Shown here in pieces: positions 918-10,572 of a DNA stretch of 25,379 nucleotides. Position 1 is the first letter of the stretch; each line of letters begins with the position of its first letter. Both the position numbers and the translations under genes were made by a program. The notes beneath the pieces were generated by a model. It had not been told where the DNA came from and searched no databases. It saw only the letters and a list, made by a program, of their open reading frames with translations. This DNA is from a virus. Lineage: Duplodnaviria; Caudoviricetes. The stretch is taken from positions 1-25,379 of the IMG/VR virus record IMGVR_UViG_3300030330_001154. The stretch is one strand, 5' to 3'.

Positions 918-984
918 GCAGCTAATGTCCTATTGGACGTTGAAAAACAATCTCAGTGACATCGATCAAGGATCTCAAATCTGA
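757..984 (+). CDS. Hypothetical protein (start may be ATG 787)
   Basis: Beta/alpha-patterned segment KIRTLDDGCVRIQVGEYVGTVSSMHLVEPKIKQL; overlaps the ParB-like gene start. Confidence 0.5.
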   Translation: MTTSSVPSSTMSDASASPTPAAKIRTLDDGCVRIQVGEYVGTVSSMHLVEPKIKQLMSYWTLKNNLSDIDQGSQI

Positions 985-1456
985 TCACAAAAATGCTCGC
1001 AGGCGCACTGATCGTTCCGCCGAACTAATCAAGGAGTCCCTGCAGCGTTACGGCGCAGCCCGCTCGATCGTCATCGATGAGGACAACCGCATCCTCGCCG
1101 GCAACGGCACTATCGAGGGCGCTAAGGAGGCCGGCATCAACCGCATCCGCGTGATCGAGACCGACGGCGACGAAGTGATCGCTGTTCGCCGCACCGGCCT
1201 TACCGAAGAGCAAAAGGTCGGCCTTGCCCTCGCCGATAACCGCACCGCTGATCTCTCCGAGTGGGATCAGGAGATGCTGAACCGCCTCGGCGAGCAGCAC
1301 GACATCTCCCTCTTCTTTTCGCAGGACGATCTCGACGGCATCCTCGAGACCGATGTCGAGCCCCTCCCCCCCGAAGATTTCGACGAGGTAGACGACGACA
1401 TCACAACCGAGCACCGTTGCCCCTCCTGCGGGTACGAATGGAGCGGCAAGTCCTAG
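956..1456 (+). CDS. ParB/Srx-like N-terminal-domain protein with acidic linker and C-terminal CPxCG ribbon
   Basis: NARR...IKESLQRYG...IVIDEDNRILAGNGT..GA and LALADNRTADLSEWD match phage ParB-like proteins; ends in HRCPSCGYEW. Confidence 0.85.
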   Translation: MTSIKDLKSDHKNARRRTDRSAELIKESLQRYGAARSIVIDEDNRILAGNGTIEGAKEAGINRIRVIETDGDEVIAVRRTGLTEEQKVGLALADNRTADLSEWDQEMLNRLGEQHDISLFFSQDDLDGILETDVEPLPPEDFDEVDDDITTEHRCPSCGYEWSGKS

Positions 1457-1457
1457 C

Positions 1458-1497
1458 TGGACGAACCGCCTGCGGCACCCCTACAATCCGTATACAG
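1458..1497 (+). promoter_or_regulatory. Putative sigma70-type promoter for the modification/packaging operon
   Basis: TGGACG 1458-1463, 18-bp spacer, TACAAT 1482-1487, located in the intergenic gap; GGGAG precedes ATG 1516. Confidence 0.45.
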
Positions 1498-1515
1498 CAA
1501 CCGGGAGCGTTCCCA

Positions 1516-1716
1516 ATGCAAATCCGTCTAGTCCCCCCCTACAACCGTCGCGCCCCCAAGTGGTCGGTCGTCACCTTCGTGAAAGATCCGATCATGTGCG
1601 CATGGAAAGAAGAGAAGCGCAAACGCTTCCTCAACCCCGCCGAGGCTCGCGCCTTCGCTGAGTCCCTCGCCCTCGAGAACGACGCCGAACTGATCGAAGT
1701 CGCCCCGAGACGTTGA
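1516..1716 (+). CDS. Hypothetical protein (66 aa)
   Basis: 3' part of track ORF 1261-1716 taken from ATG 1516 (MQIRLVPPYNRR...); RBS-like GGGAG upstream; stop overlaps the next TTG start (TTGA). Confidence 0.65.
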   Translation: MQIRLVPPYNRRAPKWSVVTFVKDPIMCAWKEEKRKRFLNPAEARAFAESLALENDAELIEVAPRR

Positions 1717-2492
1717 GAGACCTCCTGATTAGCCTCCTGGCTCCCCTGCCCCTCGATTTCGCCGTCGCGACGTCGGGGGGTCTTGATTCGTGCACTCTCG
1801 TCGCTGCTGCCGTCGCCGCAGGCAAGCGGCCTCGCATCGTCTCGTTCACCTTTGACGATTTCGAGTCGTCTGACTTCAAGCACGCTCGAGCGGTCGCCGA
1901 TCACTTCGACCTCGACTTCGAGCCGGTCCTACTGCCCAGCGGTCAGAAAGAGATCATTCGCACGATCACCCGACTGATCAAGCAGTACAAGCTCAGCAAG
2001 AAGGCTCGGATCGAATGCGGCTTCCCTTTCTTCTACCTAGCCCGGCAACTCGAGGGGCAGACCCTCGTCACCGGCCTCGGAACCGACGGGCACTTCGGAC
2101 TCTCGAAGAAAGCCATGATTCACTTCCGTGAGCCGCAGGAAAAATTCGACGAGTTCCGCAACGCCTACTTCGCGAACACCGACGCTGCCGGCAAGCTCTG
2201 CATCAAGCGGATCTGCTCGTCCTTTGACGTCGATCTCGTCAACCCTTATTTCGATCCGAAGGTCTTTCATGCCCTGCTCGGTCGATCATGGGACGAGCTC
2301 AACAAACCACGGCAGAAAGAGGTTTTGCGTGCGGCCTTTCCCGAGCTCGACTCCCTCAAGCTTCCGAAGCACACGAACCTGCAACTAGGTGACTCGCAGA
2401 TCGCTGAGCGCCTCGGCGCAACCGCGATGCTCTACGTCCCCGGCTCCGTATCCGCGATCGGTGCCTACAACAAAATCCGCAAGCAGAAATGA
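1713..2492 (+). CDS. Stand-alone asparagine-synthase C-terminal-domain (PP-loop) ATP-dependent amide ligase; predicted CmoY-like DNA hypermodification enzyme
   Basis: PP-loop SGGLDS, SDFKHARAVADHF, LVTGLGTDGHFG (compare the AsnB SGEGADELFG motif), NPYFD, KEVLRAAF. No N-terminal glutaminase domain. Confidence 0.8.
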   Translation: MRDLLISLLAPLPLDFAVATSGGLDSCTLVAAAVAAGKRPRIVSFTFDDFESSDFKHARAVADHFDLDFEPVLLPSGQKEIIRTITRLIKQYKLSKKARIECGFPFFYLARQLEGQTLVTGLGTDGHFGLSKKAMIHFREPQEKFDEFRNAYFANTDAAGKLCIKRICSSFDVDLVNPYFDPKVFHALLGRSWDELNKPRQKEVLRAAFPELDSLKLPKHTNLQLGDSQIAERLGATAMLYVPGSVSAIGAYNKIRKQK

Positions 2493-3559
2493 AGCCGCCC
2501 TACAACGTCCCGTCAATGCGGGAGATCGAAGCAACGCCGTGGAACGGGTTCAAGGTCGCCTCGACCTTTTCAGGTTGCGGCGGCTCCTGCCTCGGTTACC
2601 GAATGGCGGGTTTCCGCGTCATCTACGCAAACGAGTTCATCCCTGAGGCTCAGCGGACCTACAAGACGAATCACCCCAACAGCTACCTCGACGGGTCGGA
2701 CATCAGAACCCTGACCCCTGAGAAGCTCCTCGAGCGTGCCGGGCTTGAACGAGGCGAGCTTGATCTACTCGACGGATCACCGCCCTGTTCCGCCTTCTCG
2801 ACCGCAGGACGACGTGAGGAAGGCTGGGGCAAGGTCAAGCAGTACAGCGACGGCGCGCAACGCGTTGATGACCTGTTCTACGAATACGCCCGAATCTTGA
2901 AAGGCGTGCAGCCGAAGGTTTTCGTTGCCGAGAACGTCAGCGGCCTCGTCAAAGGAACCGCCAAGGGTTACTTCAAGCGGATCCTGCAGGCTCTTCGCGA
3001 TTGCGGGTACAACGTCAGATGCCGCGTCCTTGACGCTCGCTGGCTAGGCGTCCCGCAGATGAGGTCGCGGACGATCTTCGTCGGGGTTCGGAATGATCTC
3101 GGCCTCGAGCCCGCATACCCGAAGCCCTTCCCTTACGCCTACACCGTCGGCGAAGCCCTAACGCCTACCCCCGCAGATACGACCTCGAAGCAGCTAAACG
3201 AAGAGTCGGAGACCTACCGCTATTGGCTCCGAGCTAAGCCCGGCGAAACCCTCGGCGACGTCTGCCGACGGCTAACCGGCAAGACGAGCTTCCTGACTCA
3301 CTACAAGCAATCACCGGACCGCCCGGCGAACGCGATCACTCAGGGCACGCAGCAGCTTTATCACTGGGCCGAGCCTCGGACCCTCACCCTCGGAGAGCTT
3401 CGCCGAATCGGCGGCTTCCCTGATGATTTCATCCTTACCGGCAGTTTTATTCAGCAGTGGGAACGTATCGGTCGTGCAGTTCCTCCGTTAATGATGGCGC
3501 AGGTTGCTAAAACTATTGAGCAAGAGATCTTGTCAAAAATCGGTGGAGATACCCGCTAG
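2489..3559 (+). CDS. C5-cytosine DNA methyltransferase homologue; predicted carboxy-SAM-dependent carboxymethyltransferase (CmoX-like)
   Basis: Motif I FSGCGG, motif IV GSPPC (Cys100), motif VI ENV, motif VIII PQMRSR, motif IX RIGGFPDDF, motif X IGRAVPP with Arg329 in place of the canonical Asn. Confidence 0.9.
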   Translation: MKPPYNVPSMREIEATPWNGFKVASTFSGCGGSCLGYRMAGFRVIYANEFIPEAQRTYKTNHPNSYLDGSDIRTLTPEKLLERAGLERGELDLLDGSPPCSAFSTAGRREEGWGKVKQYSDGAQRVDDLFYEYARILKGVQPKVFVAENVSGLVKGTAKGYFKRILQALRDCGYNVRCRVLDARWLGVPQMRSRTIFVGVRNDLGLEPAYPKPFPYAYTVGEALTPTPADTTSKQLNEESETYRYWLRAKPGETLGDVCRRLTGKTSFLTHYKQSPDRPANAITQGTQQLYHWAEPRTLTLGELRRIGGFPDDFILTGSFIQQWERIGRAVPPLMMAQVAKTIEQEILSKIGGDTR

Positions 3560-4196
3560 TTGGACATTTGAAACGCCGGATGTAGCAACCGGCTTTGATA
3601 ATCACGTCCGCGAACAGCTTCCCTGGTACGACTTAGCAACCGCCGCGATCACTCACATCGCACGGCATTACATCCCGAAGGGCGGGCTGGTCTACGACAT
3701 CGGTTGCGCTACCGGCAACATCGGTCGCAGCCTCGAGGCGACGCTCAAAGCTCGAGACGCCCGACTCGTCGGCATCGATCCTTCTGACGAGATGCGGAAG
3801 ATTTACAACGCCCCGGGGATCTTCGTTTGCTCCCCGGCGGAGTCCTACGAATACGAGCCCTTTGACCTAGGCATCTCGTTCTTGACGTTGATGTTCGTCG
3901 AGCCGAGCAAGCGCCGTGACTACCTTCGGAGGCTCCTCGATAAGTGCCGACCCGGAGGCGCAATCATCATCTTTGACAAGCTCGAGACCGCGCACGGTTA
4001 CTTCGGCACCGTGATGACTCGTTTAACCCTCGCGGGAAAATATGAGGCCGGTGTTAACGCTCAGGAGATAATCGAGAAGGAATTATCTCTTGCGGGAGTG
4101 CAAAGACCCATAACATTGGCTCAACTCCCCGGCGTCCCTTATCAGTGGTTCCGTTTCGGTGATTTCGCCGGTTACATCCTCGAGAAACCGATCTGA
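3543..4196 (+). CDS. cmoA: CmoA-like carboxy-S-adenosylmethionine synthase (class I SAM fold)
   Basis: WTF...VATGFDNHVREQLPWYD, VYDIGCATG, GIDPSDEM, LTLMF, PGGAIIIFDK, EIIEK..L.GV and QWFRFGDF follow the CmoA pattern (DWTFDE.VAEVFPDMI.RSVPGY, VYDLGCSLG, FTLQF, LSEK, WFQ.FNF). GTG 3543 preferred over TTG 3504. Confidence 0.8.
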   Translation: MEIPASWTFETPDVATGFDNHVREQLPWYDLATAAITHIARHYIPKGGLVYDIGCATGNIGRSLEATLKARDARLVGIDPSDEMRKIYNAPGIFVCSPAESYEYEPFDLGISFLTLMFVEPSKRRDYLRRLLDKCRPGGAIIIFDKLETAHGYFGTVMTRLTLAGKYEAGVNAQEIIEKELSLAGVQRPITLAQLPGVPYQWFRFGDFAGYILEKPI

Positions 4197-4513
4197 TGTC
4201 TAAGTCAACGAAGATCGAAGTCGATATGCGGGTCAACCGAGTTGCCCGTCTCCTAGCGAACGGGGCCGTGCGCTCGGAGATCGTTCAATACTCTGCGAAT
4301 GAGTGGGGGGTCTCGGATCGGCAGACAGACAACTACATCGCGAAGGCGAGAGAGCTGATCCGCGCTGACTGGGAGATCGACCGGCGCAGCTTCACTGCGG
4401 AGATCCTTGCCCAGCTTTCGAGCATTCAGAAAGAGGCCCGGAAGACCGGCAACCTCAGCGTCGCCTTAGGTTGCGTCAATCAAGCCGCGAAGGTCGCGCG
4501 GTTGTTTGAATGA
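4196..4513 (+). CDS. terS: Probable terminase small subunit (HTH protein)
   Basis: HTH-like RSEIVQYSANEWGVSDRQTDNYIAKARE; directly upstream of and ATGA-coupled to terL. Confidence 0.65.
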   Translation: MSKSTKIEVDMRVNRVARLLANGAVRSEIVQYSANEWGVSDRQTDNYIAKARELIRADWEIDRRSFTAEILAQLSSIQKEARKTGNLSVALGCVNQAAKVARLFE

Positions 4514-5835
4514 GCATTCTGGCGTCAGTCCCGGGGGGCTCGATCCTTTCCGCTATCGAGTCCGCAACGCCTTTCACTGAGGCTGACCTGCGCGGATACG
4601 TTGACGGGCTAGCCGAGGGGCTCACGGGGCCTCAGCGTGAGGTGTGGGAGGCGAACAAGCGGTTCAAGCTGCTCTGCTCAGGTCGTCGTTTCGGCAAGAC
4701 CTATCTCTGCATCACTCGGCTGATCTGCTGGGCGATGGAAAAGCCCGGAAGCCTGTGCTGGTACGTCACCGCGAACTATCGGATGGCGAAGCAGATCGCA
4801 TGGCGTCAACTGAAGACGATGGCCCCCGAGGAGCTCGTCGTTAAACGGAACGAGTCGGACCTATCGATCGAGTTCGCTAACGGCAGCCTGATCGCTCTCC
4901 GGGGCGCGGATAACGAGGACAGCCTGCGGGGGGTCAGCCTTTCGGCGCTCGTCATCGATGAGGCCGCCTACGTCAAGCAGACGGCGTGGGAGATGGTCCT
5001 ACGGCCCGCCCTATCGGATCAAAACGGCCCCGCCTGGTTTATTACTACCCCTGCCGGCCTGAACTGGTTTCACGATCTCTGGGAGCAGGCTCAGGAGCAA
5101 GCGGATTGGGACACCTTCTCGTTTACGACGATTCAAGGGGGGAACGTCTCAGCGGAAGAGATCGAGGCCGCGCGAAACACTCTCGATGAACGAACCTTTA
5201 GGCAAGAATATCTAGCGAGCTTTGAGACGCTCTCGGGTCGGGTTTATCCCGGCTTCACCGACGAGAACATCAGCGAAGACGTCAAGGACACCGGCGGGCC
5301 GATCTACTGGGGCACCGACTTCAACGTCAGCATCATGGCCGGCGTTCTCGGTAGCAGAGTCGGCGACACGCTTCATATCTGGGACGAGCTCGCCGTCAAG
5401 CAGTCGAATACCGACGAGGTCTGCGCGATGCTCCGCGCTCGGTTCCCTGATCGTCAGGTCATCGCCTACCCGGACCCGACGGGCTCAGCTCGTAAGACGT
5501 CCTCGGCGGGGCGTACCGACCACGACATCATCCGCCGCTTCGGCTTTAGCTGTATCAGCCCGAAGGCTCCTTGGGCCGTTAAAGACAAAATCAACGCCAC
5601 GAACTGGATGATCAGAACGGCGAAAGGCAGCCTGCGTCTATTCGTACATCCCCGCTGTAAACACACAATCAAGGCTCTAAAAAACGTGACCTACAAGCAA
5701 GGCGCGGAAGACTATGTGATCGATAAGTCGGCAAACATCGAGCACTGGACTGACGGCCTCGGTTACTTAATCCTCGGCGCGTTTAATCCTCTGCACGAAC
5801 GCGCTGGACGGGGCACTGGCATCAGGCTTTACTAA
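4510..5835 (+). CDS. terL: Terminase large subunit
   Basis: Walker A SGRRFGKT, LRG, Walker B VIDEAA, coupling motif ITTPAG, FRQEYLASF, nuclease motifs GTDFN and HWTDGLGY. Confidence 0.95.
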   Translation: MSILASVPGGSILSAIESATPFTEADLRGYVDGLAEGLTGPQREVWEANKRFKLLCSGRRFGKTYLCITRLICWAMEKPGSLCWYVTANYRMAKQIAWRQLKTMAPEELVVKRNESDLSIEFANGSLIALRGADNEDSLRGVSLSALVIDEAAYVKQTAWEMVLRPALSDQNGPAWFITTPAGLNWFHDLWEQAQEQADWDTFSFTTIQGGNVSAEEIEAARNTLDERTFRQEYLASFETLSGRVYPGFTDENISEDVKDTGGPIYWGTDFNVSIMAGVLGSRVGDTLHIWDELAVKQSNTDEVCAMLRARFPDRQVIAYPDPTGSARKTSSAGRTDHDIIRRFGFSCISPKAPWAVKDKINATNWMIRTAKGSLRLFVHPRCKHTIKALKNVTYKQGAEDYVIDKSANIEHWTDGLGYLILGAFNPLHERAGRGTGIRLY

Positions 5836-5862
5836 ACTGATTGCGATGGGCGGGTTCTAGCT

Positions 5863-7311
5863 GTGTACTCAGGCTTTTCTGGTCGGCAACGCGTCGGCAA
5901 CGTGACGACCGTCGAAAGCCCCAACACGGCTTACGTCAACATGGAGCCTCACTGGCTTCTTATCGAAGCGTTGTTGCAAGGAACTTACGGAATCAGAAAA
6001 GGTCACAGAAAATATCTTCCGCAGGAGCCGAGAGAGCTAGACGAGGCATACGACAACAGGCTGATGCGTTCAACGCTTGCGCCTTATTACGTCAGGCTCG
6101 AGCGGATGTTGGCGGGTATGTTGACCCGCAAGCCTGTACGCCTCGAAGACGTCAGCGACGTTGTCACTGAGCAACTCTTCGACGTTGACCTGCAAGGCAA
6201 CGATCTCAACGTGTGGACCTACGAAACCGCACGGAAATGTATTCGTTACGGACACGTCGGCGTTTTAGTTGACGCGCCGAAGGCGGGCGAGAACGGGCGG
6301 CCCTACTGGGTAGCCGTGACGCCAAGAGACATCCTCGGCTGGCGGAGCGAGGTCAAGGACGGCCGGCAGCAGCTTACTCAGTTGCGGCTGATGGAAGAGA
6401 TCACCGTGCCCGACGGTCTCTACGGCGAGAAGCAGGTGCAGCAGGTTCGGGTACTTACCCCCGGCGCTTTCGAGATTCATCAGAAGGATAAGAAAGGGGA
6501 CTTTGTTCTGATCGATGAGGGCCGCACGAGCCTCAGCGAGATCCCGTTCGCTGTCGCCTACTCGAACCGCGTCGGCGTTCTCGAGTCACGCCCGCCGCTC
6601 TCTGACATCGCTGAGTTGAACCTCAAGGCGTATCAGGTGCAGTCTGATCTCGATAATCAGCTCCATATCAGCGCCGTTCCGATGCTCGCCATCTACGGCT
6701 TCCCGCAGTCGGCAGAGGAGATCAGCGCCGGGCCAGGAGAGGCGATGGCGCTCCCTGAGTCAGCGCGGGCCGAATATATCGAGCCAGGCGGAAACAGCTA
6801 CAACGCACAGTTTCAGCGGCTTGATCAGATCGCAGGTCAGATTAATGAATTAGGCCTCGCTGCCGTTCTCGGTCAGAAGCTCAGCGCAGAGACGGCGGAG
6901 GCGAAGAAGATCGACCGGAGTCAGGGCGACAGCACAATGATGGTCATCGCTCAGCAGATGCAGGATCTGATCGATAACTGCCTGTCATTCCACGCGCAGT
7001 ACATGCAGCAGTCTCAGGTCGGCAGCAGCTTCGTTAATCGTGACTTCCTCGGTCAGCGTCTCGAGCCGCAAGAGATTCAGTCCCTGTTGCAGCTCTATAC
7101 CGCAGGAACGATTACGCAGGAAACGCTCCTGAATCAGCTCTCTGCCGGTGAGGTTCTCGGCGACGAGTTCGACGTCGAGGAGGAGATCGAGGCGACGCAG
7201 ACCGGCGGCCTGATCGAGATGCAGCAACCTGAGCCCGAGCCTGCGCCGGAAGAAGAGGCCACAATGCCAAAAGCAGAGCCGGAGGCAGAAGAAGATGAGC
7301 TGGCTGGATAA
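5863..7311 (+). CDS. Portal protein (DUF4055-like)
   Basis: Follows terL; 482 aa; YLPQEPRE..AY..RL, DVDLQGNDL, YGHVGVLVD, PPLSDIAELN motifs; acidic C-terminus. Confidence 0.88.
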   Translation: MYSGFSGRQRVGNVTTVESPNTAYVNMEPHWLLIEALLQGTYGIRKGHRKYLPQEPRELDEAYDNRLMRSTLAPYYVRLERMLAGMLTRKPVRLEDVSDVVTEQLFDVDLQGNDLNVWTYETARKCIRYGHVGVLVDAPKAGENGRPYWVAVTPRDILGWRSEVKDGRQQLTQLRLMEEITVPDGLYGEKQVQQVRVLTPGAFEIHQKDKKGDFVLIDEGRTSLSEIPFAVAYSNRVGVLESRPPLSDIAELNLKAYQVQSDLDNQLHISAVPMLAIYGFPQSAEEISAGPGEAMALPESARAEYIEPGGNSYNAQFQRLDQIAGQINELGLAAVLGQKLSAETAEAKKIDRSQGDSTMMVIAQQMQDLIDNCLSFHAQYMQQSQVGSSFVNRDFLGQRLEPQEIQSLLQLYTAGTITQETLLNQLSAGEVLGDEFDVEEEIEATQTGGLIEMQQPEPEPAPEEEATMPKAEPEAEEDELAG

Positions 7312-7579
7312 GTTGCGAAAGCGCGGGCAAGAAGAGCCGATCAATCGACTCCTGTTCTTTACGAAACAAGAGCTGACAGAGCAGAGCTATGCGGTGATCA
7401 GAATCACCTGGTACATCGACGGTCAAATCGCCGGTGTCTCAGAGACCTCGATCGGCTTATACGACCAAGATGTCATCGCTGAGTTTTCTGATCTAGTCGG
7501 GAACGCTTTACGCGCCGGTTGTGACGTTTCGGTCGCTTGTATTGATGACCCGCAATATCTGGGCATCTATGACTCATGA
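7295..7579 (+). CDS. Hypothetical protein (94 aa)
   Basis: Fills the portal-MuF gap and overlaps both neighbours. Confidence 0.7.
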   Translation: MSWLDKLRKRGQEEPINRLLFFTKQELTEQSYAVIRITWYIDGQIAGVSETSIGLYDQDVIAEFSDLVGNALRAGCDVSVACIDDPQYLGIYDS

Positions 7580-8805
7580 GCACGCCGTCGGAGCTTTACC
7601 GCAATGCGATCGACCTCAATCGATTTAGCAACAGCGTTGCCAAGCGAGTTGCTGTTGCATACAACGATCTTGTTCTGGATTCTGTTGATCAGCTTCGTGG
7701 CATCGATGAGCTTGCTGCGCCTGCAAAGGCTGCACGGCTTCGGGCGATCCTCGCGCAGCTAAAGGAGTCCTTAGAGGGCTGGGCGGGAGCAAGCACGCTG
7801 TCGGTCGTCGAGGATCTACAGGGCTTAGCCGTTCTTCAGAGTGAGTTTGTGACGAACGAGCTAAGGCAGGCTCTGCCGATCGAACTTCGAGAGCAGATCC
7901 GCAGTATTCAGATCAGCCCGCAATTTGCTCAATCAGTCGCAACAATAGACCCAACTGAGATTAACGTTGTTTCTCTTAGCGACGACCTACAGGCCGCCGT
8001 CACCGGAGCGCCGCAAACGTTCAGCCTGACCGCCGCGCAGGGAACGACCGTCACCCTCCCGAACGGGAAAGTGCTTGAGAAGTCTTTCCGGGGCCTCGCT
8101 GAATCGCAGGCCGATCTATTCGCTAAGACCGTTCGCAACGGCCTACTTACCGGCGAATCAACCGACAAGATCGCTCGAAGGCTCAAGGGTCGTTTGCGTT
8201 TCGGTCAGCCGGGAAGCCTGCGGCAGATCGCACAGGCCGGAGGCGAGATCACTGCCGTCGCTAATAATCAGGTGATGGCGTTGATCCGGACGAGCATCAA
8301 TCAGGTCGCGAACGAAACGAGTCAGCAGGTCTACCGGGCGAATCAGGACATAACGAAACGTTATCGATACGTCGCGACGCTCGACAGCCGAACTTCCCCG
8401 ATCTGCCGGTCTCTTGACGGTCGCCTGTTTGAGTACGGCAAAGGGCCTACCCCGCCGCAACATTTCAACTGCCGATCTACAACCGTGCCAATCATTGATT
8501 ACAGCGGTCTTGGGATCTCGCGGCCCCCGCAGACGGAACTCCGCCGACCTAATACGGCGTTCGGTCCTTCCCGGGTCAGACGCGGCGATACGGTCCCGAG
8601 CAATCAGACTTACGGCGAGTGGCTTGATAAGCAGCCCAAGGAAGTCAAGGCCGATGTCCTTGGTGCGTCTAAGGTCCCGTACTTCAACCGACTGTCTGAA
8701 AAGTTCGGCCCGACAGTCGCGATCCGGAAGTTTGTAAGTCAAGACGGCACAGAGCTAACGTTAGAGCAGCTCAAGCGTCGTTATCCCGATGTCTCTTCCA
8801 GCTAA
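7576..8805 (+). CDS. Minor head morphogenesis protein (MuF / SPP1 gp7 family)
   Basis: YVATLDSRTSPICRSLDG...PPQHFNCRST signature; position after the portal gene. Confidence 0.9.
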   Translation: MSTPSELYRNAIDLNRFSNSVAKRVAVAYNDLVLDSVDQLRGIDELAAPAKAARLRAILAQLKESLEGWAGASTLSVVEDLQGLAVLQSEFVTNELRQALPIELREQIRSIQISPQFAQSVATIDPTEINVVSLSDDLQAAVTGAPQTFSLTAAQGTTVTLPNGKVLEKSFRGLAESQADLFAKTVRNGLLTGESTDKIARRLKGRLRFGQPGSLRQIAQAGGEITAVANNQVMALIRTSINQVANETSQQVYRANQDITKRYRYVATLDSRTSPICRSLDGRLFEYGKGPTPPQHFNCRSTTVPIIDYSGLGISRPPQTELRRPNTAFGPSRVRRGDTVPSNQTYGEWLDKQPKEVKADVLGASKVPYFNRLSEKFGPTVAIRKFVSQDGTELTLEQLKRRYPDVSSS

Positions 8806-9882: not shown

Positions 9883-10572
9883 ATGGCCGATGAAACTAAT
9901 CGTCAGGAGCCTGCGGCTTTTGATGCGTCTCAAGAAATCGATCAACTGCAAAAAAGGTTGCAGGCGATGGATCGAAAAAATGCAGAGCTTCTCGATGAGT
10001 ACAAAAAAGCTGTAGAGAAATCCAAAGCTGTTCCTGATGGCGTTGATATTCAGGAGCTACTGGACTTCAAAGCTAAGGCAGAACAAGCAGACCTGGAGAA
10101 ACAAGGCAAGTACACCGAAGCAAGACAGGCTCTGGAGCAGCAGTTCCGTGAGGCGACGGAAGAGAAGGACAAGCGCATCGCGGAGCTAGAGGCACGCGTG
10201 CGTGAGCTTGAGCTAATCGCCCCGGCTAACAACGCACTCGCTGACGTTGTGCATGATCCGAGCATCGTGTTCAAGGCTCAACTGCTGAACCCGAATCAGA
10301 TCGAGCGAGAGGCCGACGGCACTGTCGTAGTCGTCAACGGTTACGAGCGCAAACCGATCGGCGAATGGGCGAAGACTTTGCCGAGCTATATGCAGAAAGC
10401 TCCGAAGCCCGTCGGAACTGGTGCCCCTTCAGGGCGAAGCGCAGGCGGCGATATTCCCCCGGGGACAAAGAATCCCTTCGCCAAAGAGTCCTACAACCTC
10501 ACAGAACAGTCCCGGCTATATCGCACGGATCGGGATATGTATGAGAGGTTGAAAGCTGCTGCTAACCGTTAA
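9883..10572 (+). CDS. Capsid scaffolding protein
   Basis: Coiled-coil N-half, G/P-rich linker and C-terminal KNPF...NLTEQ.RLY motif; immediately upstream of the major capsid gene. Confidence 0.8.
   Translation: MADETNRQEPAAFDASQEIDQLQKRLQAMDRKNAELLDEYKKAVEKSKAVPDGVDIQELLDFKAKAEQADLEKQGKYTEARQALEQQFREATEEKDKRIAELEARVRELELIAPANNALADVVHDPSIVFKAQLLNPNQIEREADGTVVVVNGYERKPIGEWAKTLPSYMQKAPKPVGTGAPSGRSAGGDIPPGTKNPFAKESYNLTEQSRLYRTDRDMYERLKAAANR

Follow-up and report, generated by a model that had tools for sequence, protein, structure and literature searches.

This work concerns a group of DNA modification genes in a phage genome, and the scarcity of one trinucleotide, CCA, in the DNA that surrounds them. 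The genome fragment, called the window below, is the whole stretch of 25,379 nucleotides at positions 1 to 25,379 of the IMG/VR record IMGVR_UViG_3300030330_001154. The genome that it comes from is marine and cyanosiphovirus-like: the portal protein is 75% identical to that of cyanophage KBS-S-2A, and 69-71% identical to those of S-H1 and MED4-184. Starting at position 956, the genes code, in order, for a ParB-like protein, a ligase resembling asparagine synthase, a homologue of C5 cytosine methyltransferases, a CmoA-like protein, the terminase subunits TerS and TerL, the portal, and head and tail proteins.

A CmoX cassette beside the terminase genes

All genes of the cassette are on the + strand. 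The ParB-like protein (956..1456; phrog_620, E 4.6e-31) is followed by a CmoY-like ATP-dependent amide ligase (1713..2492; PF00733; 38% identical to SpCmoY of phage S-B43, E 2e-50), by CmoX, a homologue of the C5-cytosine carboxymethyltransferase (2489..3559; PF00145, E 3.4e-58; top PDB match 8YF3, E 1.9e-74; 40% identical to SpCmoX), and by a CmoA-like synthase of carboxy-S-adenosylmethionine, or Cx-SAM (3543..4196; phrog_4752, E 3e-50; 25% identical to SpCmoA, E 1e-18), whose GTG start we infer from the related locus L050. CmoX has the fold of C5 methyltransferases and an SPPC catalytic motif at 2777..2788 (S97 to C100, with Cys100 as the catalytic residue). Its Arg329, at 3473..3475, aligns with Arg350 of SpCmoX, a Cx-SAM binding residue, and is invariant in 25 of 25 aligned rows.

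A CmoA-like gene and an amide ligase gene both adjoin cmoX, as in the CmoX system. As judged by sequence similarity, the cassette is the CmoA-CmoX-CmoY system published for phage S-B43 (PMC12783734; PDB 8YF3). The two cassettes share the three homologues, the SPPC motif, an arginine that replaces the asparagine of motif X, and a ParB neighbour. By homology, CmoA would make Cx-SAM, CmoX would carboxymethylate C5 of cytosine, and CmoY would amidate the product. The differences are that S-B43 is a myovirus, whereas the window belongs to a siphovirus with its cassette beside the terminase genes, that the recognition region of CmoX is divergent, and that CCA, not GC, is depleted. This variable region spans approximately residues 245-292 (3221..3364), ends in TQGTQQLYHW and is unlike that of SpCmoX; the depletion follows the sequence type of this region.

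Depletion of CCA and TGG

The first-pass annotation, drawn from the letters of the window alone, had claimed a strong depletion of CCA and of its complement TGG at 956..5835, and had read it as a possible trace of the target of modification. Its counts of CCA on the + strand are exact: 0 in parB, 3 in the ligase gene, 2 in the methyltransferase gene, 1 in cmoA and 2 in terL, against 17 in the major capsid gene and 9 in the tail tube gene. It was also right that most TGG of terL are forced by the protein, since 14 of the 22 encode Trp and 5 are made by Met followed by a G. The depletion persists when both amino acids and codon usage are kept: from parB to terL, such a shuffle predicts 137 CCA and TGG where 55 are observed (z -11.2), and the second-lowest of the 32 trimers is only at z -4.1. 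A sequencing artefact was ruled out, contigs of an independent run matching long stretches with 0 differences.

Removing the sites forced by Trp and by Met followed by a G leaves the free sites, whose observed to expected ratio (free O/E) changes along the window. It is 0.00-0.28 in the five genes formed by the cassette and terS, parB having 0 non-Trp sites for 9.8 expected, and 0.21 in terL; terS and terL, assigned by profile matches and linked to the cassette, occupy 4196..5835 (+ strand). Past terL, the ratio is 0.34 in the portal gene and 0.32 in the minor head gene (5863..8805, + strand; 17 sites against 42.6 expected, and 10 against 29.0), 0.44 in the partly depleted scaffold gene (9883..10572, + strand; 9 against 18.0) and 0.70 in the tape measure gene; the capsid gene reaches 0.85, and the tube and fibre genes 1.1-1.2. 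The depletion claimed at 956..5835 is thus real, but it does not end at terL: the gradient implies a zone that reaches approximately 8805, then fades. In this zone, 956..8805, both strands together hold 49 non-Trp sites for 173.5 expected, and free O/E is 0.00-0.34 in the eight main genes, and 0.38 and 0.55 in two small open reading frames (ORFs). In related loci that carry the cassette, the Markov ratio is mostly 0.5-1.0 over 10 kb upstream as well, while in cassette-free loci it is mostly 0.8-1.4; the pressure consequently looks genome-wide, with its minimum at the cassette.

No base at positions -2 to +3 rescues CCA: in 8 loci, all flanking contexts drop about equally (O/E 0.36-0.61), which rules out a longer or bipartite site. 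Measured against a context-dependent codon model trained on 64 kb of cassette-free relatives, CCA stands at 0.32, ACA at 0.61, GCA at 0.73 and TCA at 0.88. The words CCT (1.17), CCC (1.39) and CCG (1.73) show no reduction against the relatives, and CCG is among the enriched words, together with CGA/TCG at 1.91.

The five synonymous contexts are all low, on both strands: the Pro codon CCA is used in 7 cases out of 120, and, with a hyphen separating codons, the ratios are 0.23 for NCC-A, 0.07 for NNC-CA, 0.19 for NTG-G and 0.22 for NNT-GG. When followed by GG, all 46 two-fold codons end in C, and when followed by CA, 2 of 31 do; the corresponding fractions in cassette-free relatives are 0.49 and 0.45. 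The consensus of 14 sister portals contains 29 CCA sites; the window portal has lost 18 of these, which now read CGA (7), CCG (5), TCA (4), AGA (1) and CAA (1). This loss, on both strands and in all contexts, including the Pro codon CCA and NNT-GG that have no silent C>T exit, indicates selection against a DNA word, neither deamination nor an effect at the RNA level. A cause acting through RNA or tRNA was likewise rejected, both strands and all frames being affected.

The earlier proposal was that a modified C deaminates, CCA decaying to TCA or CTA. As an explanation of the depletion this is highly improbable. The context that C>T can reach silently, NNC-CA, does have the lowest ratio, so that a minor contribution is possible, but the Pro codon and NNT-GG lie beyond synonymous C>T and are also depleted, and the 18 lost portal sites became mainly CGA or CCG, with 4 TCA and no CTA. 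A footprint of deamination, in which sites are lost only by C>T and TCA or CTA are gained, is not what we find, TCA not being enriched. Nor are TCAG and CTA specially common, as had been suggested: TCAG is at 0.99 against the context model, and CTA, at 1.47 here, is at 1.73 in the tail genes.

Over 956..8805, the CG avoidance usual in relatives is absent, and both GATC (54 versus 36) and TCGA are high; CCA loss explains only a part of this. The weaker drop of other CA/TG words may come from a relaxed activity of CmoX on NCA.

Comparison of CmoX types

The loci compared come from IMG/VR: 71 CmoX loci and the best 80 of 592 portal loci, plus further sets. The CmoX type of the window is present in 30 loci, a group from which 5 duplicates were removed; their cassettes have a CCA O/E of 0.30-0.75, and in 27 of them no trimer is lower than CCA. 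The 36 loci with sister CmoX types have a CCA O/E of 0.81-1.19. The median for portals is 0.72 in 14 loci with the CmoX type of the window versus 0.91 (0.80-1.17) in 42 loci without a cassette match, defined by a terS match and no cmoX or cmoA match, among which short contigs may conceal a cassette. Thirteen cassette-free loci rechecked at E 1e-3 gave no match, two of them having little upstream DNA. The depletion could have been shared by relatives lacking the cassette: it is absent or weak there, both in the 42 portals and in the loci L008 and L053.

A portal tree, built without one duplicate, loci whose cassette state is unknown, and rows under 68% identity or 1200 bp, places the depleted portals in four separate clades, next to undepleted sisters. 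Depleted portals are 90-95% identical in protein to these sisters, which rules out the signature of a donor genome. The terminase was also discarded as the cause: L008, the sister of the portal group of the window, shares the terL family and lacks both the cassette and the depletion (terL 43/36), as does L053 (30/30); for L082, the DNA upstream is too short for a judgement.

Nature provides a swap. Loci L004, L107 and L108 share terL with the clade of the window (91-96% nucleotide identity) but carry another, long-diverged CmoX, and the CCA O/E of their cmoX and cmoA genes is 0.81-0.90. Outside the 30-locus group, the recognition type of the window is found in six loci, and in all six the cassette is below its flank (median 0.78 versus 1.00); L124, which bears this recognition type, is a different type of phage. 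The parB-cmoX-cmoA cassette of L050, which has no ligase, is also CCA-depleted, and a bulky amide adduct, against which selection had been suggested to act, is therefore not required. ParB, CmoA and CmoY were each rejected as the cause, being found without depletion, or depletion being found without them.

In L125-L127, where GMQQ replaces GTQQ, there is little CCA depletion (0.87-1.01 versus 0.74-0.79 in L122, L124 and L128); a specificity residue or a recent arrival may lie behind the contrast. In the cassettes of L104-L106, whose recognition region ends in QGANQ, CGC is at 0.54 and CCG at 0.47, versus 0.83 and 0.71 in the flanks: a possible CG-type footprint of another CmoX variant, seen in three near-identical loci only.

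The enzyme of S-B43 serves as a positive control. The mapped target of SpCmoX is GC, and roughly 75% of these sites carry the modification (PMC12783734). In 81 loci of the S-B43-type clade, GC O/E is 0.62-0.78 and CCA O/E 1.01-1.37, and the cassette is below its flank in 62 cases out of 64. The S-B43 cassette has 51 GC for 70.6 expected, under all 39 comparison blocks; the word targeted by its own enzyme is depleted in its own cassette, a likeness with the window that emerged from the present analysis. In orthologous replication genes, GC O/E is 0.71-0.72 in two carriers, one of which has a CmoX identical to that of S-B43, 0.84 in S-CRM01, and 0.88-0.94 in six relatives, these being genomes that a SpCmoX search at E 1e-40 did not match. 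AGC, GCA and GC, all containing GC, rank as the lowest three words of this comparison. The CmoX of the window is not of this GC type: its recognition region is divergent, and GC O/E is 1.02-1.15 in the 30 loci of its clade. With GC low and CCA normal in one clade, and the reverse in the other, the two clades dissociate. The idea that the missing word is a footprint of the modification target is thus backed by the GC control and by the tie to one clade, its deamination route excepted.

One could also imagine a blind spot, CmoX protecting many cytosines, and so relieving CG avoidance, except those of CCA, which would stay exposed to a host nuclease and be avoided. The CG avoidance of relatives is indeed gone in the clade of the window (C before G 0.75-0.90 versus 0.39-0.62), but in the sole clade with a mapped target, this target is the depleted word and not an enriched one, and we find the explanation very doubtful.

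Probable target, possible cost and competing explanations

Since phages with a related, GC-modifying enzyme show a comparable shortage of GC, this CmoX probably targets CCA. The reading that we favour, with a probability of about 0.62, is that CCA is the target of the CmoX variant of the window and is selected against, most strongly in the genes longest linked to cmoX. The phage, which carries the CmoA-CmoX-CmoY cassette, has lost most avoidable CCA and TGG near it; modified sites, or leftover unmodified ones, would carry a cost at the DNA level, for example through a modification-dependent host nuclease, or through hindered replication or repair. As long as the phage has the enzyme, selection would favour the synonymous loss of CCA genome-wide. 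Most escapes would gather in genes with a lasting link to cmoX, and structural genes would be refreshed by recombination with cassette-free phages.

Several observations weigh against this reading. Four cassette loci, L014, L095, L098 and L102, have undepleted portals, nested among or beside undepleted ones; we read these portals as recent recombinants. Among the six outside loci of the same recognition type, L261 (0.91) and L352 (0.89) are weak, and in none of the six does CCA rank lowest among the raw trimers. In several sister clades of CmoX, no word stands out clearly as depleted, and the footprint rule is therefore not universal; loci inside a clade are kin, so that counts are not independent. 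As to the GC control, AAT is lower than GC in the S-B43 cassette, the mean GC O/E over 50 kb of S-B43 (0.93) nearly equals that of the controls (0.94-0.95), and the named S-B43-type carriers share one isolation host, which confounds the host with the enzyme. A canonical methyltransferase locus of the Asn type, L300, is also low in CCA (0.63/0.66), and the cassette to flank ratio of CCA shows no difference between 14 loci of the Asn type and 37 further loci that are Arg-type or linked to cmoA (p 0.43). Finally, low CCA also goes with high CGA in GC-rich phages whose recognition domains are unrelated, and in the window CG is up 1.50-fold and CA/TG down to 0.65 relative to relatives, which exceeds what CCA loss explains.

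These last two facts, together with the values of ACA and GCA given above, are what a generic shift of composition would produce, CA/TG going down and CG up by lineage mutation or codon bias, with CCA merely its extreme. We consider such a shift quite unlikely as the explanation, for three reasons: NNC-CA has become NNT-CA in 29 of 31 cases, a change that keeps CA and lowers GC content; the 42 control portals show no dependence on GC content (rho -0.14, p 0.39); and unrelated low-CCA loci lose CCC, and often CCT too, whereas CCT is at about 1.03 here.

The main rival is that avoidance is driven by a host system that reads CCA, such as SspABCD-SspE phosphorothioation, a CCA nickase or a protospacer adjacent motif, the CmoX type merely marking phages confined to hosts of that kind and modifying another word. 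Ssp modifies 5'-CpsCA-3' (PMC9646914, PMC13251355), sspBCD is present in some cyanobacteria (PMC12914056), and cytosine modification gives T4 partial, not full, relief from SspBCDE restriction (10.1101/2022.06.16.496414). The word 5'-CCA-3' and a single-strand mark are common to Ssp and to our case; a CCA signal at the DNA level, on both strands and free of context, fits, and a host-range gene would likewise sit at the centre of the gradient. Ssp differs in being a backbone modification made by the host, and no ssp gene was found among the window ORFs scanned for domain and PHROG profile matches. We nevertheless judge this explanation unlikely: the 42 portals without a cassette match are not or weakly depleted, the swap lineage, which exchanges genes with the clade of the window, is not or weakly depleted in its own linked genes, the tail fibre gene is undepleted, and in the available text of PMC9646914 and PMC13251355, SspE nicking is not shown to be CCA-specific. 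Two papers on marine Synechococcus (PMC10696648, 10.1101/2024.04.25.591146) do not mention Ssp in their accessible parts, which is weak evidence. A combined case, in which the enzyme is aimed at CCA since a host system reads CCA, likewise predicts a CCA target. A broader proposition, rather unlikely as a whole, is that hypermodifying phages evolve off their own targets, so that specificities can be read from word counts, and that this CmoX is a CCA counter-defence to host Ssp, avoidance clearing the uncovered sites.

Restriction-site avoidance is known in phages; the sites there are those of host enzymes, whereas here the word tracks an enzyme variant of the phage itself. The same distinction applies to the depletion of GANTC in pelagiphages, which resembles the present one in that a short word is lost clade-wise (PMC9516812). 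Chloroviruses have C5 enzymes that read short asymmetric CC-type sites, M.CviPII (CCD/CC) and M.CviQIX (CC), a likeness in the sites that are read; these enzymes add a methyl and not a carboxymethyl group, and they modify CCA, CCC, CCG and CCT, whereas here CCA alone is depleted (PMC9636781). Yang et al. (PMC12783734) identified 5,615 CmoX candidates and left specificities other than that of SpCmoX to be determined; a term search of the available text found no mention of avoidance. Our literature searches, which included terms in PMC12783734, PMC8919816 and PMC9516812 and had subscription journals and supplements outside their scope, found no own-target avoidance by CmoX phages and no CCA specificity. 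Within the literature searched, the CmoA-CmoX-CmoY system is already known, and what is new is the CCA footprint and the predicted CCA specificity.

A footprint from which the sole known target (GC) can be recovered, and CCA predicted as a further one, would be a cheap guide for choosing CmoX enzymes to test, and such gaps may allow targets to be read from sequence alone. It also suggests a per-site cost of hypermodification, unlike the usual picture of pure camouflage. Epigenome mapping, for which enzymes of this kind are in demand (PMC9636781), would benefit from a short-site, non-CG carboxymethyltransferase.

Some minor observations concern the cassette and its surroundings. A 138-amino-acid ORF at 310-726 is mildly depleted (0.74) and has no match in Pfam or PHROG; approximately 291-723 is missing from contigs of other runs, which marks the ORF as a variable insert. 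A scan of the window for promoters and terminators gave results no better than chance. The cassette is modular: its ligase is absent in L050, CmoY-type in the window and amidotransferase-like in L124, and cmoX is swapped in L004, L107 and L108. In MED4-184, a tgt-like gene occupies the slot upstream of terS. Five loci with CmoX-like genes and unrelated recognition regions (L274, L284, L286, L358 and L363) have CCA as the lowest or joint-lowest cassette word, which reflects convergence on CCA targets or else a GC-rich signature. In Moraxella phage Mcat8 (L152:15779-17486), CmoX-like and CmoA-like genes lie immediately upstream of the terminase, and CCA is the lowest cassette to flank word, at 0.69, with GGA at 0.59 genome-wide.

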